From: Alphaproteobacteria bacterium
Lineage (GTDB): Bacteria > Pseudomonadota > Alphaproteobacteria > Bin95
Direction of reading: 5' to 3'
DNA: 64,000 nucleotides
Assembly: GCA_964291285.2 (NCBI GenBank)
Contig: OZ219786.1
Span: 160,001-224,000 of the forward strand
The position numbers were made by a program, and so were the translations under genes. The notes below the pieces were generated by a model that searched no databases, was not told where the DNA came from, and saw nothing but the letters and a program-made list of their open reading frames with translations. Numbering within the stretch: position 1 is the stretch's first letter; each line of letters starts with the position of its first letter. Below, one piece after another: positions 44,942 to 63,952 of this stretch.

Positions 44942-45351
44942 CGGGACGCACCCACCTCGGCATTCTTGCCAAGCCCTTCCATTCGAGGCATATGTGACAT
45001 AAGCGGTTGCGTGGACACGATTATTTTAGTCCGCTAGATTGCGGCCATGGAACCCACAGTCGCCAAACGAGACAAGAGAGCGAGTGCTTACGATCCGTTT
45101 CGCACGCTCGCATTCCCGCTGCGCTTACGAGAAAATCGACCCGTTCCACCACAGGACGCCATCCGTCGAATGTAATGCTTCCGTTATCGGGTGATGGATT
45201 GAGATTTCAGCGATTGAGGGTTTGTTTCCAGTCTCGTTTCAGCGGGCGCAGCCAGATGTCCTTTCTGGGTTCGGCGCGCCTCATGAGGGTGTCGTAGCGG
45301 CCGTGCAAAGGCTTCTGGTAACGCCTTTGACGATTCGCTATTGTCGCGCGC

Positions 45352-47868
45352 ATGGCGATGCGCGACGGGGATTTCGGGACAGCGCTGGCGCTGCCGGAGG
45401 GGGAGGAGGCGATCTGGTCGCCTCCGATGTCGGCGGTGCCGAGCGAGCTGCGCGACTGGCGGGCGCGGGCGGAAGCGGCGGAAGCGCGTATCAAGGAGTT
45501 GCTCCGGACGGAGAGGGCCGCGCGTTCCCGGGCGGGTTCTCTGAAGTGGCAGCTCGACAGGAGCCGGACCAGGCTGAAGGCGGCCGTCGAGGAGACGGCG
45601 CGTATTCGCCGTGCGGCGAAGGATGCACTGTTCCATCAGGCGGAGGTGGCGCGGCTGGAGAAGCTGCTTGCGGAAGCCGGCGTCGATTCGAGAAAGGGCG
45701 CGAACGGACGACTGCGGAGGGAGAACGCCCGGCTGCACAAGGCGCTGGAGCGAGCGCAGGAGCAGAAGGACAAGATCGCGTCCTTGCGCGGGGAGATATC
45801 GGCGCTGCGGAAGTCGGAACGGGCGGCGCAGGCGTCCCTGTCGAGGGAAGGCGCCAGGTTGAGCAAAGCCCTGGAGCGGACGGACCGGCAGGAGGACATG
45901 ATCGAGGCGCTGCGCACGGAACTGCGCGAGGCGCACAAGGCAACAGCACGACTGGACAAGGAAGTCGCGCGGCTCGGCATGGAGGTCGCGGCGCTCGGCG
46001 AGGAGGCGTCGGCGTCGACGGTCCTGGCGGACGCGATCAAGGCGTTGCGCGCGGAGAATGCCGCCCTGCAGAAGACGGCGAGGGCCTTGGAGAGCCGGTG
46101 CAAATGGCTCGACAGCGAGAACGCCGATCTTCACTGGTCGATCGGAAAATCCCTGGAATATCGGCAGCGGCTCGAAGCCCGGCATCGCGACGAGACCGAC
46201 CGTCTGCACCGGGAGATTGCGCGGGAGCGTTCGTATCGTGCGCGGTCGTGGGAACGCCAACAGGCCGTCGTCGGGCCCCTGAGCAAGCGGCTTGTCCAGC
46301 ATCGCAAGGCGACCGTGCGGGCGAAGGACGTCATCGAATCGGTGCGCCGGCGCAACGCCCGACTGCGCACCGAGGTGCGGGAGTTGCGGGCCGAGAGGAC
46401 AGCGCTGGCCTCGCGCGCCGAGACGCTGGAAGCCCAGGTCGAGAAGCTGCGCTCGACCCGCAGCGTTCTGTCGAAGGCGCTGTTCGGCAGCAGGAGCGAG
46501 AAGCAGAAGAAAGCCGGCACGGGGCGCAAGCGCGGCCAGCAGCCCGGCGCGCCGGGCCACGGCCGTACCAGGCGGCCCGGTCTCCGGGAGAAGAAGGAAC
46601 GGCGCAACCCGCCCAAGGATGCGCGCCTCTGTTCCTGCTGCGGCAAGCCCTATGTCGCCAACGGCGAGCGTTCCACGAGCCTCATCGAGATCGAGGTCAA
46701 GGCTCACATCCGCAGGATCGAGCGGCCGCGCTGGCGCCGGGGTTGCGAGTGTGTGTCGTCGCCGCTGGAGGCGACCGCGCCGCCGGTGGCGCGGCTGTTC
46801 CCCGGAACGCTCTACGGAACCGGCTTCTGGGCACGGTTCCTGTTCGAGCACTGTGCGTGCCTGCGCCCGCTGAGCCGGGTCGCAGCGTGGTATGCCGACC
46901 AGGGCCTGCCGGTCTCGGCGGGCACGCTGGCCAACAGCCTGAAGCGCTTCGTGCCGCTGTTCGACCCGATCCACAAGGCGATCCTCGCGCATCAGAACCG
47001 GACAACGGTGCGCCATGCCGACGAGACCGGCTGGCGGGTGCAGGAGTTCCGCCGCAACGGCCGGTCGAGCCGCGCCTGGCTGTGGACTTCGGTCAGCAAG
47101 GACGCGGTCTACTTCCTTATCGATCCCTCGCGCAGCGCCGAGGTCGCGAAGACCCTGTTCGGCGACACCGATTGCACCGTGTTCGTGGTCTGCGACCGCT
47201 ACAGCGCCTACAGGAAGCTGGCGCGCGAACTCGACGGCAAGGCGATCCTCTGCTTCTGTTGGGCGCATCAGAGGCGCGACTTCGTCGAGGGCGCCGCCGG
47301 CCATGCGCGGCTGGCCCGCTGGTGCGAGGGATGGATCGAGCGGATCGGGGAGATCTACCGCCTGAACGACGAAAGGCTGAAGCATTACGACCCCGCTCGC
47401 GCTCTCGAACGCCAGACGCCGGCCTTCGACGCGGCGCAGGACAAGTTGAAGAAGGTGGTCGAGCGCCTGTTCGCGGACGCCGTGGCGGAGTTGGCCGGCC
47501 TGCCGGAAAAAGCGCGCAAGGCAAAGGCCCTGCGCTCGCTGCTCAAGCATCGCGAAGGGTTGTGCGTCTTCGTCGACAATCCCCAGGTTCCGATGGACAA
47601 CAATCTCGCCGAACGCGTGCTCCGCGGGCCGGTCATCGGACGCCGGGCGAGCTTCGGTTCCAACAGCGAGGACGGCGCGAAGTTCACCGCGATCATGTAC
47701 TCGGTCGTGGGTACGCTCTCGATCAACGGCATCAATGTCCTGCGCTGGCTGGAGGCATGGCTCGAAGCCTGCGCGAAGGACGGCGGCAAACCGCCGGAAG
47801 ACCTGTCCCCGTGGCTGCCCTGGACGATGAGCGAGGCGCGCAGGCGCAAGTTCACGGCGCAGGAATGA
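45352..47868 (+). CDS. IS66-family transposase (TnpC-like) with long N-terminal coiled coil
   Basis: LFGSRSEK, RGQQPGAPGH, CSCCG, HADETGW, CDRYSAY, CWAHQRRDF, DNNLAERVLR. Confidence 0.9.
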   Translation: MAMRDGDFGTALALPEGEEAIWSPPMSAVPSELRDWRARAEAAEARIKELLRTERAARSRAGSLKWQLDRSRTRLKAAVEETARIRRAAKDALFHQAEVARLEKLLAEAGVDSRKGANGRLRRENARLHKALERAQEQKDKIASLRGEISALRKSERAAQASLSREGARLSKALERTDRQEDMIEALRTELREAHKATARLDKEVARLGMEVAALGEEASASTVLADAIKALRAENAALQKTARALESRCKWLDSENADLHWSIGKSLEYRQRLEARHRDETDRLHREIARERSYRARSWERQQAVVGPLSKRLVQHRKATVRAKDVIESVRRRNARLRTEVRELRAERTALASRAETLEAQVEKLRSTRSVLSKALFGSRSEKQKKAGTGRKRGQQPGAPGHGRTRRPGLREKKERRNPPKDARLCSCCGKPYVANGERSTSLIEIEVKAHIRRIERPRWRRGCECVSSPLEATAPPVARLFPGTLYGTGFWARFLFEHCACLRPLSRVAAWYADQGLPVSAGTLANSLKRFVPLFDPIHKAILAHQNRTTVRHADETGWRVQEFRRNGRSSRAWLWTSVSKDAVYFLIDPSRSAEVAKTLFGDTDCTVFVVCDRYSAYRKLARELDGKAILCFCWAHQRRDFVEGAAGHARLARWCEGWIERIGEIYRLNDERLKHYDPARALERQTPAFDAAQDKLKKVVERLFADAVAELAGLPEKARKAKALRSLLKHREGLCVFVDNPQVPMDNNLAERVLRGPVIGRRASFGSNSEDGAKFTAIMYSVVGTLSINGINVLRWLEAWLEACAKDGGKPPEDLSPWLPWTMSEARRRKFTAQE

Positions 47869-48746
47869 CCGGCGCCGTCGAGTGCCGCTACTACGGGCGC
47901 GACTTCACCGCCGACGAGATGGCGTTGCTGCGCGCCCTGATCGCCGCCAACCCGCAGCCGACCCGCGCCGCCCTGTCCAGAGAGTTCTGCCGGCGTATCG
48001 AGTGGTTCAAGCCCGACGGCGGCCTCAAGGACATGATGGCCAAGGTGACCATGCTCGCCATGCACCGCGACGGCGTGATCGTCCTGCCGCCGCCGAGGGG
48101 AAAACAGGGCCGGCCCAGGCCCATCGTCTTCGGGCCCGACACCGAGCCGCCGCTGTTCCCGGCGCCGACGACCCTCGACGAGGTTCGCCCCCTCGACTTC
48201 CGCACGGTCGTGCGCGACACCCGCGATGGCAAGCTCTGGAACGAGTTCGTCGCCCGCTACCACTATCTCGGATACAAGCCCCTGGTCGGCGCCCAGATGC
48301 GCTACGCCGTCCATGACCGGAACGGCTGGCCGCTGGCCATGCTCGGCTTCTCCACCGCCGCATGGAAGCTCGCCTCGCGCGACAGCTTCATCGGATGGTC
48401 GCCCGAGATGCGCGAAAAGAACCTGCCGCTGGTGGTCGACAACCCGCGCTTCCTGATATTGCCGTGGGTCGAGATCCCCAATCTCGGCTCGCACATCCTC
48501 GCCATCGTGCGACGGCGCCTGCCCACCGACTGGACCGAGCGCTACAACATCACGCCCGTGCTCATCGAGACCTTCGTCGAAACGCCCCGCTACTCCGGCG
48601 CCGTCTACAAGGCGTCGGGCTGGACCCGCGTCGGGACCACTCAGGGACGCGGCCGCTACGACACCCTCATGAGGCGCGCCGAACCCAGAAAGGACATCTG
48701 GCTGCGCCCGCTGAAACGAGACTGGAAACAAACCCTCAATCGCTGA
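47865..48746 (+). CDS. DUF4338 (Druantia DruA-like) domain protein, 293 aa
   Basis: WNEFVARYHYLGY, GAQMRY, RDSFIGW, NPRFLILPWV..PNLGS, ETFVE, YKASGW..VG.T.GRGR; ATGA-coupled to the transposase. Confidence 0.8.
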   Translation: MTGAVECRYYGRDFTADEMALLRALIAANPQPTRAALSREFCRRIEWFKPDGGLKDMMAKVTMLAMHRDGVIVLPPPRGKQGRPRPIVFGPDTEPPLFPAPTTLDEVRPLDFRTVVRDTRDGKLWNEFVARYHYLGYKPLVGAQMRYAVHDRNGWPLAMLGFSTAAWKLASRDSFIGWSPEMREKNLPLVVDNPRFLILPWVEIPNLGSHILAIVRRRLPTDWTERYNITPVLIETFVETPRYSGAVYKASGWTRVGTTQGRGRYDTLMRRAEPRKDIWLRPLKRDWKQTLNR

Positions 48747-48924
48747 AATCTACATCCATCACCCGAGAACGGAAGCATTACCGTCGAATCCGGTTCGGCG
48801 AGGCCGTGACGGAGGGAGCGATGGCGCAGACCGAATTCGGACCGGACCTGCCGGAACGCGGAGCCGGCATCGTCGTTTTCGTCGTCGCCATGACCGAACG
48901 CCCTCGTCTCCGGAGCAGGACGCC

Positions 48925-50106
48925 ATGACGCAACGCCAGTACCGCACCCTCTCCAAGCGTATCGTCGACAGTCTCCCCGTCGATGGCAGGGACACCGTCT
49001 ACTGGGACCGCGAGCTGCCCGGTTTCGGCCTGCGCGTCTACGCGAGCGGCAAAAAGGTCTTCGTCGTCCAGACGCGAGCCTTCGGCCGTTCCAGGCGCGT
49101 GACCCTCGGCGAGCACGGCAACCCGTTCTCCGCCGACCGGGCCCGCAAGGAGGCCGCTGAGGTCATCGTCCGCATCAAGACGGGGCAGCCGCCGATACCG
49201 AAGGACCCGGCCAACGATCCCACCGTCGCCGACCTCGCGGACCGCTACTTCAGAGAACATGTCGAGATGCACTGCAAGCCGGCCACCGTCTCCCACTACC
49301 GGATCATGCTGCGCAAGCACATCGTGCCCGCCCTCGGCGGGCGTCTCGTCGCGGAGGTCGAGCACAAGGACATCCTGCGCTTCCACGACGCGCTGCATCA
49401 CAGCCCCAGTGTCGCCAACCGGGCGGCCGACATTCTGGTCAAGATGTTCAATCTGGCCGACGAGTGGGGCTGGTGTCCCTCGGGGCGCAACCCGGCCCGG
49501 AGCGTGCCCCGTTTCAGGGTCGAGAAGCACGAGCGCTTCCTCACCCGCGAGGAACTCTCCCGGCTCGGCGAGGCGCTCAGGGCCGCGCCCGCCGGGCGCC
49601 GGGCGTCCCCCCATGCGGCGGCCGCCATCTACCTTCTCGTGCTGACCGGATGCCGGCGCAACGAGATCCTCGGCCTGCGGTGGGACGACCTCAACTTCGA
49701 CACTGGCGAGATGCGGCTGCGCGACTCCAAGACCGGCGCGCGGATGACGCCGATGCCGGCAAGGGTGGCCGCAGTGTTCGCCGGCCTTCCCCGCACGCCC
49801 GGCAATCCCTGGGTCTTCCCCGGCAGGAAGAAGGGCGCGCACCTGGTCAACCTCAACGACTCCTGGGAGCGCATCCGCAAGGACGCCGGTCTCGACGGCG
49901 TCCGCCTGCACGACTTGCGCCACACCTTCGCTTCCAGGGCGCTCGCGCTGGGCGAGGGCCTGGCGATGATCGGCGACCTGCTCGGCCACCGCAAGGTGAG
50001 CACCACCGCGCGTTACGCCCACCTCGCGCGGGACTCGGTGCGGGTGTCCTCGGCCCGGGTCGCCGCCGACATCGGCGCCAGGATCATGGCGCCGGACGGC
50101 CGCTAG
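48925..50106 (+). CDS. Tyrosine integrase A1 (arm-binding plus catalytic domains)
   Basis: YWDRELPGFGLRV, LTGCRRNE, SKT, HDLRH, LGH, TARY. Confidence 0.93.
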   Translation: MTQRQYRTLSKRIVDSLPVDGRDTVYWDRELPGFGLRVYASGKKVFVVQTRAFGRSRRVTLGEHGNPFSADRARKEAAEVIVRIKTGQPPIPKDPANDPTVADLADRYFREHVEMHCKPATVSHYRIMLRKHIVPALGGRLVAEVEHKDILRFHDALHHSPSVANRAADILVKMFNLADEWGWCPSGRNPARSVPRFRVEKHERFLTREELSRLGEALRAAPAGRRASPHAAAAIYLLVLTGCRRNEILGLRWDDLNFDTGEMRLRDSKTGARMTPMPARVAAVFAGLPRTPGNPWVFPGRKKGAHLVNLNDSWERIRKDAGLDGVRLHDLRHTFASRALALGEGLAMIGDLLGHRKVSTTARYAHLARDSVRVSSARVAADIGARIMAPDGR

Positions 50107-50143
50107 AGCGCCCGCGTCAAGGCGTACTCCGGAAGGACACTCC

Positions 50144-51346
50144 ATGCACAGCACCAACAAGCTCACCCTGTCCAGACAGTCCGTCGACCGGCTTCCCGTC
50201 GCCGACCGGGAGATCGTCTACTGGGATCGCCACCTGCCCGGCTTCGGCGTGCGCGTCTATGCGACCGGGTCGAAGGTCTACATCGCGCACGCGCGTTCCG
50301 GCGGGAAGACCCGGCGCGTCACCATCGGCCGTCATGGCGCATGGTCGACCGAGCGCGCCCGGCGCGAGGCCGGAGCGCTGATCGCGGATATCAAGGCGGG
50401 CAGGACGCCGGGCCGTCCCGGCGCGGACTCCGCGTCCGCCACCGGACCGACGATCGCCGGGCTGGCGGACGACTACATGACCCGGCACGTGGCCCTGCGC
50501 TGCAAGCCGTCCACGCAGCGATCCTGCCGCCATATCCTCGACAGATTCCTCCTCCCCCGGTTCGGGGCGCTGCGCGTCGGCGAGATCACGCCCGATCACG
50601 TTGCCGCGCTGCACTACCGGCTCCGCGAGACGCCCATCATGGCGAACCAGACGGTCTCCCTGCTGTCGCGGCTCTTCCTGAGGGCCGCGGCCTCGGGCAA
50701 CGCGCCGCCCGGCGGCAACCCCTGCCGGTTCATCAGGAAGTATCCGGCGCGAAGCCGCGAGCGCTTCCTGTCCGAGCAGGAATACGACCGGTTGGGCGCC
50801 GCGCTCGACGAACTCGAAGGCGCCGGCCGGGTTCTTGCCAGCGCCGCCGCGGCGATCCGCCTGCTGATGCTGACCGGCTGCCGGCGCAACGAAATCCTCA
50901 CCCTCAAATGGGAGGATGTCGACCTCGAACATGACGAGCTCCGGTTGCGCGACGCGAAGACCGGAGCGCGCGCGGTTCCGCTGTCGCCGACGGCGAGAGG
51001 AGTGCTCACCGCCATCCCCCGGCAGCCCGGCAATCCCTGGGTCATCTTCGGGCGCGAACCCGGAACGCACCTCGCCAATCTCAACTCGTCGTGGCAGGTG
51101 GCCCGCCGCGAGGCCGGACTCGAGGACATGCGGCTTCACGACCTTCGCCACAGCTTTGCCAGCAGGGCGCTCGCGCTCGGCGAGAGCCTGCCGACGATTG
51201 CCCGGCTCCTCGGCCACAGCCAGATCCAGACCACCGCCCGCTACGCCCACCTTGCACGGCAACCGGTGAAGACCGCCGCCGCCACCGTCGCGGACAGCCT
51301 CGCGGACGACATGGGGCCGGCGCCCGGCGCTCCCTCCATCACCTGA
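50144..51346 (+). CDS. Tyrosine integrase A2
   Basis: YWDRHLPGFGVRV, LTGCRRNE, AKT, HDLRH, LGH, TARY. Confidence 0.93.
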   Translation: MHSTNKLTLSRQSVDRLPVADREIVYWDRHLPGFGVRVYATGSKVYIAHARSGGKTRRVTIGRHGAWSTERARREAGALIADIKAGRTPGRPGADSASATGPTIAGLADDYMTRHVALRCKPSTQRSCRHILDRFLLPRFGALRVGEITPDHVAALHYRLRETPIMANQTVSLLSRLFLRAAASGNAPPGGNPCRFIRKYPARSRERFLSEQEYDRLGAALDELEGAGRVLASAAAAIRLLMLTGCRRNEILTLKWEDVDLEHDELRLRDAKTGARAVPLSPTARGVLTAIPRQPGNPWVIFGREPGTHLANLNSSWQVARREAGLEDMRLHDLRHSFASRALALGESLPTIARLLGHSQIQTTARYAHLARQPVKTAAATVADSLADDMGPAPGAPSIT

Positions 51347-52016
51347 CCGGCAGCCCCGTGCGCACTGCCGCTGAGAGTCTGTTCCTGGAGTAGCGGTTGG
51401 CCTCAAGACATGGTCGCTCAACGGGTCTTGAGGCCGATATGACAAGATTCCCGTTGATGAGGACGTCCGGGCTGTCGGGAAGGAGCGCAGGACAGGGAAA
51501 GGGGACATTCCCGAACGCGTCCCGGTCCGGGAATCCCGAAAGAGGCTGACGGGACTCGACTTCCCGTTCCGTTCCGTGACAAATTCTCCTCGTCAACATT
51601 GCACGCACCCGCTCTGTCGGGTCGCCCGCTCAATAGAACAGCCGAACCCGGCGAGGGAGTAGCTACTCGCTGGCCAACAGGCCCGCCAATGACGACCCGC
51701 GCTGCGTCGAACCGGTTTCGCTCCGCTGATCGCCGACAACTGTTCCCGACCTTGCCGACCGGTCCGGATGAAGCGGGGCCTGACGGCAGTGGGACGGGCC
51801 GCGAAACAGCAAACAGGCATATCCCGCTAAGGCGACAACCGGAAGATCATGCAAGAGGGGGGCTGGCAGACTGCTCAATGTCTGGGATACACTTGAACAC
51901 AATCGCTCCGCTGTCCAAAAGGTGAGCCACTCGGAGAGACGCCAAGTCCAAAGTCCATGGTGCTCGTACCCCCGACATCGCTCCCCTTGGCCGTGACACG
52001 AAGAAAACCAGCATCA

Positions 52017-53697
52017 GGGTGCAGGTCCCGTATGGCGATTGCAACCATTTGATTTATTGAGATTTTATGTTCTTTTCGGATGGCCTTTGGGGTCGATCGG
52101 TGACAATCGGGGTTTCGGGGTCGGGATTTTGTCACGGCCGCTCGGTGGCAGGGCCGGAAGCGGGACCGCTCCGCCCGCCGGAGGCGGGTAGGATGTCGTT
52201 CTGAAGCAACCGCAACCACAGGAGCGGCCCCATGGCAGTTTCGCAGTCTGCATCCTGCTCGTCCATCGATCTTGCCGGCTTGCCGGCTCGGATACTGGAG
52301 GCGCTGTCGGGGCTGGTTGCGGTTTGTCGTGAGCCGCCTGCTTCCGCGCCATGCGCGGTTGCATTCGAGGAAGCGGAGCTTCGTGTTCGGGAGAGCGTGA
52401 ACGCGCTGGGTTGCGAGGTTCCGGGAGCTTGGGTGGAAGGTCTGGACGACGGGGCGTTGCGGGTCGAGCAGGCCGGGCAACGCCGGTTCCGTGTGGCGGC
52501 GACGCCGAAGACGATCATGAGCACGCTCGGCCCGGTGACCTACAGGCGGGCGCGCTATCGCCACGGCGTGGGCGGCCCCTCGCTCGTGCCGGTGGACGAG
52601 AGCCTGGGGCTGGTGAACGACTGGCTGACGCGCCCGGCCGCCCGGATCGGGCTGATGATGATGGGTCACGGCACGGCGCGGGAAGCGGAGGGGTTCTTCT
52701 CGGAGATGGGCGCCATGAGGCCGTCGGCGAGCACCTTGCAGCGGCTCGCCTGCAGCCTGCATGAGCGCTGGGAGAGCCTGGGGCCGCAGGCGCTGGACAG
52801 TATCCGCAGCACGGAAGACATCCCATCCGGGGCGGTCAGCGCCTCGGTCTCGCTCGACGGCGTCATGGTGGCGCTGCGCGCCGGCGAGGACGGGCGCGAC
52901 GAGGCCTGCTGGCGCGAGGCCGCCTGCGGCACGGTCTCCTTCCACGACGCCCAAGGCGAACGGCTCAAGACCCTCTACTTCGCCCGCATGCCGGAGAGCG
53001 GCAAGCCCACGCTGAAGGCCCAACTCGCAAGCGAGGTCGCGCATATCCGCCGCGCGCGCCCCGATATCGCGGTCGTTGCGCTCGCCAGAGCCTGCCCCTG
53101 CGAAGGCGGGGGGCGCCCCCGACAACTGGACCTTCCTGGAGAGCCTCTCGCCCGAGGCCGAGGCCGTCGACTTCTGGCACGCCTGCGAGCATCTCCGCAC
53201 AGCCTCCGACCATGCCGTCGATCCCCGCTGGTTCGAGACTTACCGCCATACCCTGCGTCATGACCCGTGCGGCGTCGCCAAGGTGACCCGGGCGCTGCGC
53301 TATCTGCGCGACAAGGCAGGCAGCAACCGCACCGCGCGCAACGCCATCGAGCGCGAACTCGCCTTCTTCTGCAAGCACCGCAAGCGCATGCGATACCGCA
53401 ACCTCAGCGACCGGGGCATCACCATCGGCTCCGGCGTTGTCGAGGCCGCAAACAAAACCCTCGTCACACAGAGGATGAAGCGCTCCGGCATGCGATGGCG
53501 CATCGCCGGCGGCCAGGCCGTCCTCACCGTCCGCGCCCTCATCAAATCCGGACGCTTCGACCGCGCATGGAATGCCCTCATGAGCGATGACGATATCCCC
53601 GCAAACGAAAACAACCGCACCGGAAACCAACAAAGCCGCGCCGCATGAACCCTGACCCTCAGCCCAGCGCCATCATCGCCATACGAGATTCACGCCC
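52017..53697 (+). mobile_element. ISKra4-like insertion sequence
   Basis: Imperfect IRs GGGTGCAGGTCCCGTATGGCGAT / GGGCGTGAATCTCGTATGGCGAT; no TSD found. Confidence 0.75.
52232..53648 (+). pseudogene. ISKra4-like transposase frameshifted by a ~25-bp palindromic insertion
   Basis: SLDGVMV, DFWHACEH, IGSGVVEAANK, RMKRSGMRW; the frame changes at 53087-53111 where the DGA motif is expected. Confidence 0.8.
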
Positions 53698-53809
53698 CGC
53701 ACGGACCGTCGAGACAATCGCAACCACGACCTTCCGGGGCCTCAGTTCCCTGATCTCATTGAAAGCAAGCGGGAACTCAACTCAGGACCCGTCGGGCGAG
53801 GAGAACAAG

Positions 53810-54397
53810 ATGAAGAATCTCAGGCGAATAGCGCGTCTGAAGGTCATTGACGAAGGAGACGCATATAAAATCACCGCAAGGATGTTGAGGCTGGCGACAA
53901 GCCTCCGCCGCGCGGCGGAGATACTTGACCAAGCGCACAACGAAGCAAGGGAAGGCAGAAACCGGGAGGATTTCTCCGCCGCGTTCTACGGGACACCGAT
54001 TCTGCGGGCACAGTCAGCAGAAATTGCACTGAAGGCGCTATGGCGCATCGGACACAACGAGGAACGTGGCGCGCCCCCGCATCACCACAATCTGACAAAG
54101 CTGCATGATGCTCTGACCGAACCGATCCAGAAGCTGCTGGCAGAGGAATTTCCCGAGATACGAGACCCGTCGTGTCCACACTTCCCAATACCGGTCCGCC
54201 AAGGACTGCGGACAATCCTCAACGAACACGAAACCGCCCTCGAAGATTGGCGCTACGCCTACGAACTCGGCAGTCTCAGGTTCGAGCACGTGTTCGACGA
54301 GGTGCTGGACACGCTTATCAGCGTAGGCTGGCAGCTGCACAACCTGTGGCTCAGAAGGCTGCTGGAAGAAGACGCACAGGCTCCGAGCCAGCCGTGA
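53810..54397 (+). CDS. Hypothetical HEPN-superfamily-like protein
   Basis: AEIALKAL, HNLTKL and WRYAYE pattern; lower GC than core genes. Confidence 0.5.
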   Translation: MKNLRRIARLKVIDEGDAYKITARMLRLATSLRRAAEILDQAHNEAREGRNREDFSAAFYGTPILRAQSAEIALKALWRIGHNEERGAPPHHHNLTKLHDALTEPIQKLLAEEFPEIRDPSCPHFPIPVRQGLRTILNEHETALEDWRYAYELGSLRFEHVFDEVLDTLISVGWQLHNLWLRRLLEEDAQAPSQP

Positions 54398-54415
54398 ATC
54401 GCTCGAGGAGTAATA

Positions 54416-55535
54416 CCAGCGGGCATAGTTCAGAACCCATTGGCCCATTTTCGGGTTCCGATGGAGGCGATGCGTTCTGGTTGTGAGACGAGATTGTTCC
54501 AGGCCTGGCAGCAGTGATCGAGTATGTCGTCGTAGTTCTGGAAGACGCGGTTCGAGAGCCAATTTTCGCGCATGAACTGCCAGACATTCTCGACGGGATT
54601 GAGCTCGGGGGACCGGGGCGGGAGCGGCATCAGGGTTATGTTGTCGGGGACTTTGAGGGCCGGGGATGTGTGCCATCCGGCCCGGTCGAGCATGACGAGG
54701 GCATGGGCTCCGGGTTCAACGGTGAGGGCGACCTCGGCGAGGTGGGCGTTGAGTGCCTCCGTGTTGGCGTGGGGCATGACGAGGCCGGCGGCCTTGCCCT
54801 TCTGCGGGCATATGGCGCCGAAGATGTAGGCCGAGATGGTTCTCTGGTCCTTGGGCGCTGACGGTCGGGTGCCGCGTTTAGCCCATCGCCGGGTGATCTT
54901 GTTCTTCTGCCCGACGCGCGCCTCGTCCTGCCACCAGACTTCGACCTCGACGCCGTCGCCGAGTGCAGCGCGGATCTCCTTCAGGCGGTCGGGGAAGTTT
55001 TTTTGAACCCTGCCAGCGCGGCTTCGTCCCGGGCATGGTGGCGCGGGCGCGCAGACAGCCTGGCGTAGCCCATCCGGCGCAACTCCCGCCCGACCGTCGT
55101 CTCCGCCAACGAGATGCCGAACTGCTCGCTGAGCCATGCCGCCAGGTCGCAGCGCCGCCACCGCACCACGCCGTGGATCGCCGGGTCCGGACCGCTCTCC
55201 ACAACCGCCGCCAGCGCCGCGCGCTGCTCCCCGTTCAACTTGCGCGGCGGACCTGAGGCCTTGCGATCCTTCAATCCCTCCGGGCCTTCCGCGTTGAAGC
55301 GAAGAACCCAGTCCCGGATGATCTGCAAGCCCACCCCCGCAAAACGCGCCGCATCCGAACGACGGTAACCGTCGTAAATCACCGCAAGCGCAAGAAGGCG
55401 ACGGTTCTGCGAACCATCCCGGCTCCGCTGCGCAAGCCGCGCAACTGCGCCGCATCAAAATCCTCCCTCAAGGGGATTGCTGCCCTCATAACGACCCTCC
55501 AATCGCAGAATCGCTATTGAGTCAGAACTCGATAA
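54416..55535 (-). mobile_element. IS630-family element, left end truncated
   Basis: TA at 54414-54415 followed by CCAGCGG; no matching far end before the next IS starts at 55536. Confidence 0.75.
54430..55489 (-). pseudogene. IS630 transposase with a programmed -1 frameshift site and an extra frameshift near 55440
   Basis: WWQDEARVGQK, LDRAGWH, SPELNPVE; slippery A7C near 55000. The ATG at 55489 is out of frame with IYDG. Confidence 0.8.
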
Positions 55536-58047
55536 CCTCAGACTTCCTGACCTCGTGACGATGTTTGTTGCGGGCGGCGTTCTGGGAACTTTTTGAGTTC
55601 GGTTCATTTTTCGTCTGTTTCGGCTGATTTTCGCTGGCTGCCGTGTCCAGGTTCGGGTATTTTAATTTGACACTGGATACGAGATTTCAACCATGTCGAT
55701 TACCCTTCCCCTGAGCCCTCCGGAGGCGGTTCCGATCGGCAGCAGTTGTTTCGCCATTCTGATTTCGGACGACAGCTTCACCTACTTCTCCAACCTCGTT
55801 CCCTTTGACAGCCACGCCGCCGATGACCGCGCGGCCATGCTGTTGCGGATCGGCCGCCTGGCTGCGATCAGCGCGGTCTCGCGGCAGGATCTGGCCGACG
55901 CTTTCGGTGTCTCGCGTGCAACGGTCCAGCGCGCACGACGGCGCTACCTGGCCGAGGGCGAAGCGGAGTTTCTGAAGCCCCGGCGCGGTCGGGGACCTTC
56001 GGTGTTCACGCCGGAGCTGGCGGAGAAAGCGACGGCGTTGCTGGAAGGGGGCCTGAGCGGCTCTGCGGTGGCCCGAGTTCTCGGCGTGTCAGCGCCGTCG
56101 GTCAACAAGTGGCGGCGGCAGGGGGTGATCGGCAACGCGGAGGCGTGTCGGGAGCGCGGCAGCGCGGCAGTGGCGGTGCCGCCTGACGCGGGTGGGGCGC
56201 CCGAGGGCAGTGTCGATGACGAGAGTGCCGGTGCCGCCGGGCCGGCGACGGCAGCGGGGCTGGAGGCGCAGACGGATCGCAGCGCGCGCGACCGGCGGGA
56301 CCGGCAGGCGCCGATGGGGCGCGCGACTTGCGATGTCCGGGCTCGGGTGTTGGCCAGCTGCGGGCAGGCGGGACCGGTCGAACCGCAGTTCACCGCCGCC
56401 GCCCGCGGCGTGCGCTTTGGCGGCGTTCTCGCCGCCCTGCCGGCCCTGCTGAAGGAAGGCCTGCTCTGCGAGACCGGCCTCCTGCCGTTGCTGTCGAAGG
56501 GCTACTACGGCCTGCCCACGATCCTGCTCTTCCTGGCCTTCATGACCCTGGCGCGGGTGCGCAACCCCGAGAGCCTGCGCTACCAGGCACCGGGCGAATG
56601 GGGTGCGGTTCTCGGTCTCGACCGCTGCCCCGAGGTCAAGACGCTACGGCGCAAGATCGGGCTCATGGCCAACGACGAAGCCAGCGTGCAGGCGTGGCAG
56701 CTCGCTCTTGCGAGACGCTGGCAGGAGGAGGAGCCCGAGCTCTGGGCGACGCTGGCCGTTGACGGGCACGTCAAGGTCTACGCCGGCCGCAAGGGGCGCC
56801 TGCCCAAACACTTCGTCTCGCGCGAGAAGCTGTGCCTGCCGGCGAGCACCAGCTACTGGATCAACGCCTTGGGCGGCAAGCCCCTGCTGTGCCTGCACAA
56901 GCCGCTGGACCCGAAGATGGTCGCCGCGATCGAATCCGACGTGGTGCCGGCGTTGCAGGCGCTCGGGATCGTCGACGCCGGGGCAGCGGACCTGACCGCC
57001 GGGCAGCCCGGCCAGCCCGTGCTCACACTGGTCTTCGACCGCGAGGGCTGGAGCCCGGAGCTGTTTCGCCGGCTGGCCAGGCGCGGCATTGCCTGCCTGA
57101 CCTGGCACAAGAACTTCAGGGGCGGGGACTGGCCGGCCGAGGACTTCAGTGCGATGATCGTTCCCATTCACGGACCCGCGGCGAACGCCAGCGCCACCAT
57201 GCTGCTGGCCGAGAAGCCGGTGACGTTGAAGAACGGCTTCAGGGTGCGCCAGATCCGCCGCCTGCTCGACAACGGCCGTCAGGTTCCGCTGGTCACCACC
57301 GATCCGCACAAGCCGGTGGCGGAGGCCGCAGGCGCCTTGTTCTCGCGCTGGTCGCAGGAAAACTTCTTCAAATACATGCGCGACGAGTTCAATCTCGACG
57401 CCCTGCCGACCCACGAGATCGAGCCTCTCGCTGCCGATACCATGGTCGTCAGCCCGCTGCGGCGGGCCTACGACAAGGCAATCCGCCGCCTCGACCACCA
57501 GCTTGGCCGCCTGCGCAACCGCATCGCCGACGCCGCCCACAGGAAGCAGCCGACGGGCGAACTCAAGAGGGAACTCAGGGACCTCGAGGGCGGCCGTGAG
57601 ATTGTCAGATCCAGCCGCAGGGAGGTGCCCACGCACTGCCGGGCCGGCGACCTCGACGAAGCCGGACAGCTCAATGCCTTGCCCTCACGCGAGCGCCTCC
57701 TACTCGACATCATCCGCATGATCGCCTACCGCGCTGAAACCCGCTTGATGCTTCCCGTCATGCAGGCGCAGGGCCACAAGCCCCACCCACGGAAACTGCT
57801 TCAGGCACTCTTCACCGCCGATGCCGACATCCTGCCGGACCCTGCCAACGGCGTCCTGCGGGTCCGCATTCTCGGCCTCGCAAATGACGCCTGCGACCGC
57901 CAGATCAAGCCTCTTCTGGCCGAACTCAACGCCACCGAAACGCACTTCCCCGGCAACCGTATGCGCATGGTCTACGAGGTCGGCATAACCCCAAAATCCG
58001 CGCGCACCGGTGCCAAACAAAATTAGCAGAGGTCAGGAAGTCTGAGG
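55536..58047 (+). mobile_element. Unclassified IS with 19-bp perfect terminal inverted repeats
   Basis: CCTCAGACTTCCTGACCTC at 55536-55554 and its reverse complement at 58029-58047 enclose one long ORF; no TSD. Confidence 0.85.
55693..58026 (+). CDS. Putative DDE transposase with two N-terminal HTH regions, 777 aa
   Basis: HTH-like SRQDLADAFGVSRATV and GSAVARVLGVSAPSV; VDGHVK, VFDREG, RWSQENFFK. Confidence 0.75.
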   Translation: MSITLPLSPPEAVPIGSSCFAILISDDSFTYFSNLVPFDSHAADDRAAMLLRIGRLAAISAVSRQDLADAFGVSRATVQRARRRYLAEGEAEFLKPRRGRGPSVFTPELAEKATALLEGGLSGSAVARVLGVSAPSVNKWRRQGVIGNAEACRERGSAAVAVPPDAGGAPEGSVDDESAGAAGPATAAGLEAQTDRSARDRRDRQAPMGRATCDVRARVLASCGQAGPVEPQFTAAARGVRFGGVLAALPALLKEGLLCETGLLPLLSKGYYGLPTILLFLAFMTLARVRNPESLRYQAPGEWGAVLGLDRCPEVKTLRRKIGLMANDEASVQAWQLALARRWQEEEPELWATLAVDGHVKVYAGRKGRLPKHFVSREKLCLPASTSYWINALGGKPLLCLHKPLDPKMVAAIESDVVPALQALGIVDAGAADLTAGQPGQPVLTLVFDREGWSPELFRRLARRGIACLTWHKNFRGGDWPAEDFSAMIVPIHGPAANASATMLLAEKPVTLKNGFRVRQIRRLLDNGRQVPLVTTDPHKPVAEAAGALFSRWSQENFFKYMRDEFNLDALPTHEIEPLAADTMVVSPLRRAYDKAIRRLDHQLGRLRNRIADAAHRKQPTGELKRELRDLEGGREIVRSSRREVPTHCRAGDLDEAGQLNALPSRERLLLDIIRMIAYRAETRLMLPVMQAQGHKPHPRKLLQALFTADADILPDPANGVLRVRILGLANDACDRQIKPLLAELNATETHFPGNRMRMVYEVGITPKSARTGAKQN

Positions 58048-58060
58048 ATACGCATGGGCC

Positions 58061-58477
58061 TCACTCCCCGAACGGCATGATGCCGTATTCTTCATGGGTC
58101 AGGTTGACGACGCCGCCGTCCTCGGCGACCTGGGTCACGATCAGGTAGTTGACGCCGTCGCGCCTGTAGAGGTCGCCGTCCACCGTGACCTGGTGGGACT
58201 GGATGTCGATGACGCGCGGATTGTCCACCGGGTCCTCGTCCTCGATGCGGAGCACCATATAGACCGTCCCGTCATCGCCCTTGATGGAGACGGGAATGCC
58301 GCCGACCGCGCACCAGACCGCGCATTGATGGTGCGCCGTGCCCTCGGCGAACATGATCTCGGTGACATAGCACCAGGTGTCGATGACCTCGCCCGCGACG
58401 CGGACGCGCTCCGGCGCCGCGGCCTGCGCCCCGGAGACGCAGGCGAGCGCCAGAATTCCCGCCAGCAATGCCCTCAT
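58061..58477 (-). CDS. Exported hypothetical protein with Cys/His cluster
   Basis: Signal peptide; DTWCY and HHQCAVWC; RBS GGAG; core-like codon usage. Confidence 0.7.
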   Translation of the reverse strand: MRALLAGILALACVSGAQAAAPERVRVAGEVIDTWCYVTEIMFAEGTAHHQCAVWCAVGGIPVSIKGDDGTVYMVLRIEDEDPVDNPRVIDIQSHQVTVDGDLYRRDGVNYLIVTQVAEDGGVVNLTHEEYGIMPFGE

Positions 58478-58615
58478 TCAACCGCACTCCTCAGAGCGCA
58501 CCGGTGGGTGCTAACTATCTGACGCAGCGTCGTTTTTTCTCCCGAAATGCAGCGGTCGGGGAAGCGGGTCGCAAGGGCCCGTTCCCCGCCTGCAACCGGA
58601 GCCGGGAGAAACGCA

Positions 58616-59740
58616 ATGGCGAAGACTACCCTCACCGAAACGCGCGTGAAGGCGCTCAAGCCCCGCAAGTCGGTCCGCGAGGTCCGCGACGGCAGGCTGA
58701 GGGGCTTCGGCGTCCGTGTGTCGCCCTCGGGCCGCAAGCAGTTCTTCATCCACTGCCAGCATCGCGGCGCGCGCATCTGGAAGATCGTCGGCGACGCCGC
58801 GTCCATGAGCGTCACGGACGCGCGGGCGGCGGCTGCGGAGATGCTGGCCGCCATCAGGCGCGGCGGGGAGGCGCCGCTCACGCCGGACGAAACGCTCTTC
58901 GAGGCCGTCGCCGGGATCGCGTTCCGCCGTCACGAGGGCGTCTGGAAGCCCGGAACGATGATCGTGAACCGCAACTATCTGTGCAACCAGCTTCTGCCGC
59001 ATTTCGCCGGGCGGCAGATCGCGGCCATCGACCGGCAGGAGGTGAGGAACTGGTTCGCCCGCCTGCGCGCGACGCCGGTGGCGGCGGACCGGTCGATGCC
59101 GGTGCTGTCCGTCATCATGAGGGAGGCGGAAGCCATGGGCCTGCGCCCGGAAGGGTCCAACCCCTGCCGGGGGATCAGGCGCTACCGCCGCAAGGGCCGC
59201 GAGCGGTTCCTCTGCGCCGACGAACTGCGCCGCCTGTCCGCGCGGCTCAAGGCGCATGAGGCCCGCTGGCCGCAGCATGTCGCCGTCATCCGCCTGCTGC
59301 TGCTGACCGGATGCCGCAAGGGCGAGATCCTCACCCTGCAATGGTCCGACTACCGGGAAGGCCGCCTGTTCCTCCGCGACTCCAAGACGGGCCCCCGGAC
59401 GGTCTGGCTCTCCGAACCGGCCCGGACGGTGCTTGATCGTCTCGAGCGGAAGGGGCGGTGGATATTCCCGGCATCGAGGGGCGACCGGCCCCGGAGCGGG
59501 TGCTGGCTGTTCCACTTCTGGAACCGGGTCCGCGCCGAGGCGGACCTGGAGGACGCCCGCCTTCACGACCTGCGCCATACGCATGCGAGCCTTGCCCTGA
59601 GACAGGGCGAGACGGTGCTCGCCATCGGCCGGCTGCTGGGCCACCGCAGGCCGGAAACCACGCTGAAATATACCCATGTCGCCGACGCCATGGTGCAGGA
59701 CGCAGCCGAGACGGTCGGCGCCGTGCTGGAGGCAGACTGA
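58616..59740 (+). CDS. Tyrosine integrase B1
   Basis: LRGFGVRV, LTGCRKGE, SKT, HDLRH, LGH, TLKY. Confidence 0.93.
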   Translation: MAKTTLTETRVKALKPRKSVREVRDGRLRGFGVRVSPSGRKQFFIHCQHRGARIWKIVGDAASMSVTDARAAAAEMLAAIRRGGEAPLTPDETLFEAVAGIAFRRHEGVWKPGTMIVNRNYLCNQLLPHFAGRQIAAIDRQEVRNWFARLRATPVAADRSMPVLSVIMREAEAMGLRPEGSNPCRGIRRYRRKGRERFLCADELRRLSARLKAHEARWPQHVAVIRLLLLTGCRKGEILTLQWSDYREGRLFLRDSKTGPRTVWLSEPARTVLDRLERKGRWIFPASRGDRPRSGCWLFHFWNRVRAEADLEDARLHDLRHTHASLALRQGETVLAIGRLLGHRRPETTLKYTHVADAMVQDAAETVGAVLEAD

Positions 59741-60885
59741 TGGCGGGCCGGGAACGGATGAAACTCACCGACGCCGCCGTCGCCCGTCTCCGCCCCCGCG
59801 AGCGGGAATATACGGTCCGGGACACGCGCATCGCCGGCCTTGGCGTCCGGGTGCGGCCCACCGGCGGGCGCAGCTGGGTGCTGCTGCTCGACAGCGGCGG
59901 GCGCACGAAGCGCATCTCGCTCGGCCCGGTCGGCGTGAAGAGCCTGGAGGAGGTGCGCAGGGAATGCCATGCCCGCAAGGCGAACCCCGAGCCGGAGAAA
60001 GAGGCCCGGCCGGCGCGGCCGGTCCCGCTGTTCCGGGATTTCGTCACCGGTCCATGGAAGGAGGCGCATTTCGACGGCTACAAGCCCTCGACGCAGAGGA
60101 CCGCCCGCTATCAGCTTGCGGGCCAGCTCCTGCCGGCATTCGGATCGAAGCCGCTGGACCGCATCGGCGAGGCCGCCATCCGGCGCTGGTTCGAGCGATA
60201 CAGCCGCACCGCGCCGGGCAACGCCAATCACTGCCTTGCCCGTCTGCGGCAGATACTCAACTTCGCCCTCGCCTGCGGCCACATCGAGGTCAATCCCGTC
60301 GGGCGCATCGCCCCGAACCGCCGCACGGCGCTCACGCGGTTCCTGTCCCGGGAGGAACTCGCACGCCTCCATGCCGCCCTGGACGCGCAGACCCGGAAGA
60401 GCGCGCGGCAACAGGCCGACATCGTCCGCCTCCTGCTGCTGACCGGCTGCCGCAGAAGCGAGATCACGGGCCTCGGCTGGTCGGAAGTCCGCGAGGACGG
60501 GCTGGCGCTCACCGATGCCAAGACCGGACCGAGGACGGTTCCACTCAACAGACAGGCCCGCGCCATTCTCGACCGGCAGACGCGCGCGGGCAGCGCGTTC
60601 GTGTTTCCCTCGCCGTGCGACCCCGCCCGCCCGCGCAGCCCGGACCTGCCGCTCTGGTACCGCGTCAGACGCGAAGCCGGCATCGGGGATGTCCGCCTTC
60701 ATGACCTGCGCCATACCATGGCCAGCCATGCGGTGATGAACGGCGTGCCCGTCCCGGTGGTCTCCCGCCTGCTCGGCCATTCCAGTGTGCGCATGACGCT
60801 GCGCTACGCCCATCTTGCCGACCGCGACATCGAGGCCGCCGCGGAACGCGTCGGGCAGGCCATGAGCGCCATCATGGAGACATGA
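59740..60885 (+). CDS. Tyrosine integrase B2
   Basis: TGATG overlap with B1; AGLGVRV, LTGCRRSE, AKT, HDLRH, LGH, TLRY. Confidence 0.93.
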   Translation: MAGRERMKLTDAAVARLRPREREYTVRDTRIAGLGVRVRPTGGRSWVLLLDSGGRTKRISLGPVGVKSLEEVRRECHARKANPEPEKEARPARPVPLFRDFVTGPWKEAHFDGYKPSTQRTARYQLAGQLLPAFGSKPLDRIGEAAIRRWFERYSRTAPGNANHCLARLRQILNFALACGHIEVNPVGRIAPNRRTALTRFLSREELARLHAALDAQTRKSARQQADIVRLLLLTGCRRSEITGLGWSEVREDGLALTDAKTGPRTVPLNRQARAILDRQTRAGSAFVFPSPCDPARPRSPDLPLWYRVRREAGIGDVRLHDLRHTMASHAVMNGVPVPVVSRLLGHSSVRMTLRYAHLADRDIEAAAERVGQAMSAIMET

Positions 60886-60990: not shown

Positions 60991-62248
60991 TCAGAACTGT
61001 CGCACGAAGGAGAGTTCGGCGCGGTTTCGTTTGTAGTCGAGGGCCTGGGCGTTGGTATCGCGCTCCTCGCGGATGAGCGAGAGGCGGGGGCTGAAGCCGA
61101 GCACGGTGACGGCGCGGTTGTGCACGGAGAGCGAGAGGGTGCGCGTCTCGTCCCGGCGCGGCCTGCGGTCGATGGTATTGTGGGCGAAGCCCTGTCCCCG
61201 GTATGCGGCGCGCTGCAGGGAGGCGCGCAGGCCGAGGGTGAAGCCGGCCGGCAGCGCGAGCGTCGCGCCGAGGCCGGCCCAGGGTCCGCGGTTGCGCCAG
61301 TGTCCGGCATTGGCGCGGGTCCGGTTGTATCCGGCATGGCCGCCGAGGCGCAGGACGGGCAGGGCGGCCCAGCTTGCGCCGAGCATCGCATCGCCCGCCG
61401 GGCCGTCGAGATGGTTGCAGCCGCGGCAGTTGCGCCGGGTGGCGCTGGCGCGGGCGAACAGGGCGAGGCGCGGCGTCAGGCGGTGCGCGCCTTCCAGCCG
61501 GACGCCGAAGCGGTCGGTCCCGGGCCGCCCGGCGGTCCATTGCCGGTCCACCACCGCCAGCAGGCTCGCCTCCGTGCTCCCGTCGATCAGCCGGCGCGGG
61601 CCGATATGGGCCGAGAGCGAATGGCGGTCGAACGCCCCTCCCTTGTATTCGCGCGCGCTGGCGTCCGCCCCGGCGCGCAGCCGCAGGGCCGGCGAAAGCG
61701 GAACCTGGTATTCGCCGCCGCCCCACAGCGAGACGCCGATGCCCGACTTGCGCGACACGTCGCCGTCGAGGGTGAAGGGCAGGCGCCCGAAGGGCGTGTC
61801 GAGGAAGACCGTGCGCTCCCCCGACGCGGCGTTGAGGTTGCTGTCGGGCGCCACCGCCAGGCCGAAATGCGCCTCCCAGCGCCGCCGCGCGCGCATGATG
61901 TCGAGAAAGCGCCGGATGTTGGCGGCCACCGCCGGCGGCGGCGTCCCCGCCAGAACCTGTTCGAAATGCCGCCGCGCCAGGCTGTCCTCCTCCTTCAGGA
62001 AGAAGGCGTGCGCGAGTTCCAGACGCACACACACGCACCAGGTCCGGGCGGTCCACCAGGATGGCCCGGAACGCCGCAATCGCCTCGTCGAGCTTCCCGT
62101 CGCGGGCGTCCCGGTCCGGGGCGGCCTGCGCGGCGGCAAGCGCCTCCATGCCCGCCCGGAACCGCGGGCCGGTCGCGTCCTGGCCGTGGGCGGCCACGAC
62201 AGCGAACAGATACAGCCCGGCCGCAATGACGAGAGCGGGTATGCGCAT
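60991..62248 (-). pseudogene. Slam/DUF560-like outer-membrane exporter (TPR plus beta-barrel), frameshifted at a (GT)n tract
   Basis: The signal-peptide frame reads ...RPDLVRV and another frame continues RLELAHAFF...PDSNLN...ELSFVRQF; 4 extra bases at 62026-62034. Confidence 0.75.
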
Positions 62249-62302
62249 GGGAACCCCTGTCCGTGCAAGGGGAACCTCCGGCCGCCCGGAGAGCGACGGA
62301 GG

Positions 62303-62364: not shown

Positions 62365-62574
62365 CTACTCCGTCGTCTCCGTCTGCATCCTCGTCGAGAA
62401 TGCGCCGGCAGCGTGCCCGTTCGAGAAGTGGCTGTTGAAGTTACCGAGGTACCCGGCCGGGCGCCCCACGCCGTCCTGGCTGAAGGGATAAGCCTGCCAC
62501 TGGCCGGGCTTGTCGCTGGCGGAACCGCCGGCGGAACCCGTGGCAAGGCCGTAGAGGACGTCACCGACAGTACT
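62365..62574 (-). pseudogene. C-terminal remnant of a TbpB-like beta-barrel surface protein (probable Slam cargo)
   Basis: Not in the ORF track; reads ...GQWQAYPFSQDGVGRPAGYLGNFNSHFSNGHAAGAFSTRMQTETTE* and is cut at the IS630 end. Confidence 0.55.
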
Positions 62575-62578
62575 GATA

Positions 62579-63799: not shown

Positions 63800-63801
63800 T
63801 A

Positions 63802-63952
63802 TCAGTCCCGGAACCCGGTCTTCCCGGTCCCCGGAAACGACCGGGTCGAGGAGGAAGCGCGAGACCATCTTTCCCGCCGCCGCAGCCCTCTCGCGGATCG
63901 CCTCGCGCTCCGCCTTGCTGCAATGCAGGTTCCTCGGCTGCTTTCGCCTCAT
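63802..63952 (-). pseudogene. MobC-like ribbon-helix-helix protein N-terminus, cut by IS630
   Basis: NLHCSKAEREAIRERAAAAGKMVSRFLL resembles an RHH strand-helix-helix; RBS GGAG upstream. Confidence 0.45.

Follow-up and report, generated by a model that had tools for sequence, protein, structure and literature searches.

The 64,000-nucleotide window analysed here (C2:160001-224000, from a genome of 6.1 Mb in five contigs) contains two tandem pairs of tyrosine integrase genes, A1-A2 and B1-B2, which belong to two different many-copy mobile islands. The pairs are end modules of large islands (size range 8-62 kb) and stand at their left end. In our reading, to which we give a probability of roughly 0.6, each pair is the integration module of a multi-copy island and the two integrases act as one mixed complex on two unlike ends. 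Locus comparison shows that the two genes of a pair, predicted from their motifs to be catalytically intact, are co-inherited. It also shows that islands of lineage A insert at the D-T-N/H codons of PIN-domain genes, the island end encoding a predicted new start for the cut gene.

Tandem integrase pairs and their co-inheritance

Pair A consists of A1 (48925..50106, plus strand, 393 aa), with arm, core-binding and catalytic domains, and A2 (50144..51346, plus strand, 400 aa), separated from A1 by 37 bp. Pair B consists of B1 (58616..59740, plus strand, 374 aa) and B2 (59740..60885, plus strand, 381 aa), which fall respectively in the first-position and the second-position clade of the tree presented below. 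The profiles Arm-DNA-bind_3 (PF13356) and Phage_integrase (PF00589) are matched above cut-off by all four proteins, and the residues R, K, HxxR, H and Y fall in invariant columns of the alignment. These matches and columns bear out a first-pass annotation of the window, which had described two tandem pairs of complete integrases with an arm-type N-terminus and the R-K-HxxR-H-Y residues; the TGATG coupling that it had read in pair B is the overlap of B1 and B2 at 59740. The protein identity is 48% between A1 and A2, 39% between B1 and B2, and 32-40% between the A and B proteins.

A profile search in all six frames of the genome gave 123 hits, which fall into 47 clusters where hits lie side by side and 25 single clusters. 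Intact tandem pairs account for 38 clusters, 4 of them of type A and 34 distributed in four related groups (B to E). None of the 25 single clusters of the genome holds a full-length solitary member of the paired clades; they comprise fragments, weak and distant hits, and a distant protein present in seven identical copies. The seven identical integrase-like proteins are encoded at C1:138425, C1:785360, C2:373504, C2:1381264, C3:110589, C4:42022 and C4:230456, and three of these copies lie ~7 kb upstream of a group E pair.

Outside this genome, the best 80 of at least 606 confirmed GTDB stretches were taken as external loci. A partner gene is located directly downstream in 77 of these 80 (62 full, 15 partial). 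Of the three remaining loci, one stops at the edge of its contig, and in two the first gene is truncated. The closest loci in this set are mostly labelled Alphaproteobacteria, which makes a host of this class likely for the window. Plasmid hits numbered 28, and the five that were opened are all tandem pairs. One of these five, an intact-looking B-type pair, is carried by the megaplasmid of Shewanella oneidensis MR-1 (SO_RS22330/SO_RS22335).

A tree of the 76 paired proteins and 8 single integrases was obtained with a quick IQ-TREE run. For groups B-E, the first genes and the second genes form clades with mirror sub-trees, while A1 and A2 are sisters; the separation of first and second positions into distinct clades, which the first-pass annotation had put forward as a check, holds for B-E. 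The mirror clades take in gammaproteobacterial pairs from cultured Shewanella and Vibrionaceae, and one long-branched plasmid protein falls outside. The left ends of these Shewanella and Vibrionaceae loci keep the core ACACCCCA(C/T)GC, like family E in this genome. Integron-like cassette arrays were considered at the junctions of family E and rejected, with 28 pattern matches against ~18 expected and no array seen. The catalytic motifs are intact in 38/38 first genes and in 35/38 second genes. Chance stacking and strain-specific duplication, named in advance as the cases that would undo a two-integrase family, both fail in front of the 38 intact pairs, the mirror clades and the co-inheritance.

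Unlike ends of the lineage B islands and the proposed joint action of two integrases

The left end of the B islands is sharp and lies ~120 bp before the first gene, where host ACAC and six bases are followed by CGCACC and GGTGCTAACTATCTGA. The right ends are found 10-36 kb away and read TTTACAC or a variant, then six bases, then host sequence. Terminal inverted repeats were looked for at the B ends and none were found; the right ends were located instead through empty alleles in multi-copy insertion sequences (ISs). Such a mapping of boundaries against empty sites had been suggested at the outset. Apart from an 11-bp inverted repeat on their inner side, the two ends are asymmetric; past the overlap, no constraint is seen on the host sequence.

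We propose that an island would excise as a circle whose junction carries the short overlap from its last site. One integrase would read the half-site common to the host and the right end, and the other would read the half-site present in the left end only. Integration would then prefer targets matching the carried overlap while tolerating one or two mismatches, so that the B target would drift by lineage. Both proteins are probably needed, and an arrangement of the mixed complex with one subunit per half-site appears moderately probable. The asymmetric ends favour such a heteromer over a division of labour between the two proteins. Two points weigh on the other side: no excision, circle or protein contact was observed, and co-inheritance fits divided labour as well as it fits a mixed complex.

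In the version with divided labour, both integrases would be needed but would form separate complexes, of which one integrates and the other excises; alternatively, one protein would serve as directionality factor for the other. This is possible but rather unlikely. Neither protein has lost its catalytic set or its arm domain, the smallest islands show no conserved excisionase-like gene at their ends, and, in the part of PMC4755523 consulted, the Prevotella element MTnPi1-c, which is without the downstream integrase, did not excise; all three observations agree with it. However, unlike half-sites around the overlap with a free host side beyond suit two different DNA-reading subunits, and translational coupling would yield both proteins at once.

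The idea that one integrase recombines and that the second is an accessory protein (for cargo capture, dimer resolution or autoregulation) kept by linkage is improbable. Close single relatives of lineage A do exist beside tRNA-Met-like sites, and the three defective genes among the 76 are all second-position genes. A dispensable second gene is nevertheless difficult to reconcile with a partner in 77 of the best 80 of at least 606 GTDB stretches, with pairs in two proteobacterial classes and mirror trees, or with a genome devoid of full-length lone members.

The six bases (6-mer) at the two ends of the B islands were compared. Twelve B islands have both ends tied by an empty allele; two more with identical 6-mers, paired by position only, were excluded. 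The 6-mers are identical in 9 of the 12 islands and differ by one or two bases in the remaining 3, the probability for two random ACACC sites being 0.003 for an identical 6-mer and 0.15 for at most two differences. For two of the mismatched islands orthologous empty alleles are available; there the 6-mer on the left is that of the host (in 4/4 and 2/3 relatives, respectively) and the one on the right is foreign. Identical right ends are found with four different 6-mers; therefore the overlap changes faster than the element. Two identical B islands lie in unrelated ISs that share only the 10-bp core. Finally, the distance between spacers tracks the distance between integrase modules (Mantel rho 0.47, p=0.0004, 12 distinct sites), and this correlation is weaker when groups C and D are added (rho 0.19, p=0.035). 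The identical 6-mers in 9 of the 12 islands could also be taken for ordinary target-site duplications, produced by a transposase-like reaction without homology between donor and target. This is very improbable, since three of the youngest islands have differing 6-mers, a foreign copy being identified in two of them, one foreign 6-mer equals the site of another island, identical islands took the same 6-mer in unrelated targets, and spacers track lineage. As a separate observation, a B-type island (L162) and a C-type island (L170-L171) have the same 1.5-kb right end. On this sequence comparison, left modules and right ends appear to be exchanged between groups.

The cargo was scanned in 82 of 123 picked open reading frames (ORFs), near-duplicates and integrases being removed. 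The B islands carry restriction-modification genes, fibronectin-repeat and RTX-repeat proteins, and genes for surface lipoprotein assembly modifiers (Slam) and porins. A TrwC relaxase is encoded in three islands and NikA-like genes in several, near the right ends; no relaxase or mobilisation gene is present in the smallest islands or in the two truncated window copies. Many islands would probably be mobilised by conjugation.

The window copy of element B is inserted 18 bp upstream of the start of an intact 138-aa gene (58061-58477). This gene lies in a 451-bp host fragment (58045..58495, minus strand), of which an uninterrupted copy, 98% identical, is found at C3:2176046-2176496 and represents the empty allele. 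The first-pass annotation had placed a broken host-like gene beside each pair; the acyl-CoA ligase gene next to pair A, described below, is truly broken, but the gene next to pair B is complete. The junction that it had set near 58510, ~100 bp from pair B, is actually located at 58495/58496. The target core (58486..58495, plus strand) is composed of ACTC, a variant of ACAC, and the host 6-mer CTCAGA. It is followed by the left end of the element (58496..58615, plus strand), with CGCACC and then GGTGCTAACTATCTGA at 58507-58522, a sharp boundary common to the copies of the B family, also in other genomes. Behind the pair, the element carries a Slam gene (60991..62268, minus strand, SlipAM PF04575), which is also the cargo of sister copies, and is interrupted by an IS630-type element (62572..63805, minus strand). 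No matching right end was found for this copy, which is broken by the IS after the Slam gene. Likewise, no joint between left and right end was found over 58000-62560 in contigs of four sequencing runs, although such contigs cannot show its absence. The host fragment 58045-58495 has 8 differences from the C3 copy, and the longest contigs of three sequencing runs match the C3 version; the fragment may have been imported from a related strain along with island B. The islands also nest in one another: just past the window, the right end of a group C element lies inside the Slam gene of another B island, inverted and truncated (L174, C2:224561-226738).

PIN-domain genes as insertion sites of lineage A

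Five left ends and five right ends of lineage A were detected in this genome. Three of the five left ends interrupt a PIN gene at its D-T-N codons. In relatives these three genes are whole and lie behind an antitoxin-like gene (FitA-like in two), and these vapBC-type operons represent the empty alleles. On its opposite strand, the A left end encodes M-S-Y-L-L in frame with D-T-N. In the 62-kb A island, the native 5' stub stands at the right end together with the gene of the upstream partner, so that both PIN halves are at the ends of this island. The same is observed in the genome G007, where a ~19-kb A island has the native stub at an AT-rich right end and both halves at its ends; this genome also contains a second A-type pair, followed by an F-type conjugation cluster.

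External loci were scored by the identity of their first integrase to A1 when at least 420 bp were present upstream. A PIN gene is found upstream in 17 of the 19 loci at least 62% identical to A1, in none of the 63 loci at 45-62% and in none of the 82 others, a contrast that is tempered by a PIN profile built partly from scored loci and by near-duplicates, the distinct external sites numbering about 15. Of 17 reading frames compared with Pfam, three of which come from this genome, 16 match PIN, PIN_3 or PIN_4; the one without a match is an off-target site. Homologous A ends join different PIN genes and the boundary is at the D-T-N/H codons, with an in-frame ATG, GTG or TTG 4-6 codons before the D in 17 of 19 A ends. 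A search at the DNA level detected the A left end in none of 16 other genomes of the genus; a protein search then found relatives. The right-end motif gave one weak match and no pattern match in five other genomes, and the right end was found in one of six elements followed over ~60 kb.

Further observations concern the targets of A-type elements. A PIN_4 (PhoH-type) gene occupies the target position at L240:2-646, and the target range of A therefore extends beyond toxin-antitoxin genes. In one PIN gene, a single codon is the junction for two different A-type ends (L226, L229), which suggests repeated independent insertion there. Other A-type pairs, ~52% identical to A1 (L211-L213, L216, L219), have a lipoprotein-like gene upstream, on the opposite strand, in place of the PIN gene; this gene may be either target or cargo.

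With its core pinned to conserved active-site codons of a whole toxin family, lineage A would find numerous landing sites in each genome. Through the donated start, the PIN gene would remain translatable while being separated from the operon of its antitoxin. This donation resembles the behaviour of SXT, which replaces the cut 5' end of prfC at its insertion site. Whether the rebuilt PIN/VapC toxin gene is expressed appears evenly balanced, and a selective role for the rebuilt toxin is doubtful. Several points count against a functional donation or a simple insertion: some donated starts are TTG or GTG and lack a clear ribosome-binding site, for one A copy in this genome no start lies within 12 codons, the left end of the window's element A showed no outward promoter, and both junctions in the ligase gene described below have a base absent from the alleles of all seven relatives, which a single clean crossover does not explain.

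One might also take the PIN genes for cargo that happens to end up at the border of A elements, and the pairs for separate islands stacked by chance, but this is hardly credible. Toxin-antitoxin genes are common as island cargo and one whole vapBC pair does lie inside the 62-kb island, but in the empty alleles these PIN genes are uninterrupted and have a start and an antitoxin of their own, native 5' stubs stand at the far ends, and the homology between elements stops at the D-T-N codons.

Concerning the origin of lineage A, the A-type pairs, represented by 14 rows from four genomes, group in a clade (Shimodaira-Hasegawa-like approximate likelihood ratio test, SH-aLRT, 96) that is sister to single integrases and nested among more singles (99-100). 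Three of the single relatives adjoin a tRNA-Met-like 3' end, as read by eye. Forcing all first-position genes together is rejected by the approximately unbiased (AU) test (p=2.5e-11), and A1 and A2 are therefore not orthologues of B1 and B2. These branch supports point to a likely second origin of the duo in lineage A, from a lone integrase. In opposition to this, a tree with all paired genes together against the singles, which corresponds to a single origin of the duo, is not rejected by the same test (p=0.11). The family of two-integrase elements postulated in the first-pass annotation survives in its co-inherited pairs, sharp ends and empty alleles, but is made of two lineages with different ends and targets.

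The window copy of element A is inserted at an off-target site, in a gene for an ADP-forming acyl-CoA ligase (Pfam Succ_CoA_lig and ATP-grasp_5), of which the 3' part remains at 43202..44926 (minus strand). The ligase is whole in the loci of 7/7 relatives, and both halves in the window genome are syntenic with them. The 5' half is on contig C3 (from 1826885 downward), where it adjoins a right end of type A. A CoA-binding gene at C3:839848 was tried as the lost half and is a separate whole gene. The attachment core (44918..44926, plus strand in our feature list) reads GAC CCC AAT on the minus strand, which encodes D-P-N and resembles the D-T-N codons of PIN genes; this core is repeated at the right junction on C3. 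It is preceded in the reading direction of the ligase by the five codons donated by the left end (44927..44941, minus strand, M-S-Y-L-L), in frame with the target. The same end placed on the PIN gene at C3:1342853 gives MSYLLDTN, and the ORF 43202-44941 begins with MSYLLDPN because the island hit the look-alike G-P-N codons of the ligase. The base that no relative has, at 44918-44926 and at C3:1826874-1826885 (L080), turns the conserved G of G-P-N into D. It is either a prior mutation or the footprint of repeated excision and re-entry.

The non-coding left end (44942..45171, plus strand) is common to 5 loci in the genome and contains at 45012-45040 a sigma-70-like site facing the integrases, a putative promoter by consensus match only. 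An IS66-family element (45172..48781, plus strand, DDE_Tnp_IS66), recognised by its ends and an 8-bp target duplication and present in other copies, separates A1 from this promoter-like site. Once it is removed, A1 starts about 380 bp from the ligase junction, as in the IS-free C3 copy and close to the ~390 bp first estimated. The transposase of this IS is very long, with a coiled-coil N-terminus, and the second ORF (47868-48746) matches DruA (PF14236) in place of the usual accessory genes. The rest of the interior (51347..58046, no strand assigned) contains an IS remnant (52015-53697), a 250-aa ORF, AT-richer and without Pfam match (53645-54397), an IS630-type element (54406-55538) and a Transposase_29 IS (55529-58046), at the end of which element A is cut off. 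The element is identical up to 58046 to a C3 copy lying in a PIN gene (100% over 48781-54126 and 54121-58046), and both window copies, A and B, are thus truncated. The motif TAACT(C)ATC, which had been noticed at both junctions, could not be retained as a shared signal. The A copy corresponds to the donated start codons, read as their reverse complement, and is not kept in other A ends, and the B copy is part of the 11-bp inner inverted repeat made with the right end; the two are not homologous and have different roles.

Relation to known systems and significance

The systems below are described from the parts consulted of each cited paper, and the comparisons are limited to these parts. Tandem tyrosine integrases have already been published as the 'Tyr duo' of the mobilizable transposons MTnPi1-3 of Prevotella intermedia (PMC4755523; PMC5704250), which insert at TT(A/G)C NNNNN AA (TTAC NNNNN AA), a site with a variable middle of five bases (PMC4755523). 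As in MTnPi1-3, the islands described here have two tandem, intact and distantly related integrases (39% identity within pair B, 48% within pair A), several copies per genome, a short relaxed site and two genes both suspected to be needed. A relaxase, carried by MTnPi1-3, is encoded here in some islands (TrwC in three sister islands) and not in others. The differences lie first in the site, since that of these Bacteroidota elements is AT-rich with conserved bases on both sides, whereas B uses ACAC and six bases with a free host side, and A uses the D-T-N codons. The integrases here are moreover of the Arm-DNA-bind_3/DUF4102 type, set beside those of MTnPi by description, and occur in ~40 copies. 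Neither gene-family targeting nor start donation is described for MTnPi1-3 in the parts consulted.

Integrases of the IntSXT subgroup (DUF4102), found in P4, SXT and genomic islands, are described as single, with one conserved target locus per cluster (PMC8138268). They have the same domain architecture, PF13356 being present in all four window proteins, and the nearest single relatives of A adjoin tRNA 3' ends. Unlike them, the integrases here are paired (38 pairs at many sites), B has a relaxed target, and A targets a motif of a divergent, multi-gene toxin family.

SE elements need the four genes intA, tfp, intB and srap and occur in 1-2 copies in Gammaproteobacteria (PMC10214605); Tn554 needs three genes, for one abnormally long recombinase, one of normal length and TnpC (PMC3414803). 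Two tyrosine recombinases at the left end, together with 6 bp of host origin in attL and a foreign footprint of 6 bp in attR (in the two informative B islands), are features in common with SE and Tn554. In contrast to SE, there is no intA-tfp-intB-srap block here; the integrases abut, the sequence behind the second gene varies among copies, and the 6-mers are usually identical. In contrast to Tn554, the recombinases (374-400 aa) are of normal length and bear an arm, and there is no conserved third gene. GInts, with a ginABCD operon for three recombinases and a small protein, are highly site-specific (PMC5385486). They resemble the present islands by an integrase operon at one end, variable cargo, imperfect direct repeats of 10-11 nt and attachment-site variants which increase integration and guide its specificity, but all intact clusters here have two genes only. 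RIT elements have three recombinases and terminal inverted repeats, and BIM elements one recombinase with an unrelated protein (PMC3414803). Both share with our pairs adjacent, overlapping recombinase genes in Proteobacteria; RIT differs from them by its third gene and its repeats, the ends here being asymmetric with a sole inverted repeat, the 11-bp inner one.

The tandem duo architecture itself is therefore known from Prevotella, and the new part is the PIN targeting and the start donation of lineage A. No description of DUF4102-type duos, or of PIN genes as integration targets, was found in the literature, where subscription journals and unseen supplements could hold one; the terms 'PIN', 'VapC' and 'toxin' are absent from the parts consulted of PMC10083194 and PMC12884075.

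The need of some elements for two or three tyrosine recombinases could be tested here on a natural case, an integrase pair with cargo, unlike ends and a site of 9-10 bp. The targeting strategy of lineage A, in which insertion at a motif of a fast-evolving toxin family is combined with a replaced gene start, is one that we have not found in print. More tentatively, and in our opinion with less chance of being right than wrong by a good measure, obligate two-subunit integrases would have arisen twice among arm-bearing tyrosine recombinases, lineage A would exploit this asymmetry to home on the PIN/VapC active-site codons as a family-wide landing pad, the donated start would remove the toxin from the operon of its antitoxin and place it under island control, and integration and excision would turn the host's toxin-antitoxin module into a switch for maintenance or defence of the island. 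Should the rebuilt toxin be expressed, islands could take over host toxin-antitoxin modules by their landing site, in a genome around which ~40 such islands also carry restriction-modification, adhesin and secretion cargo.

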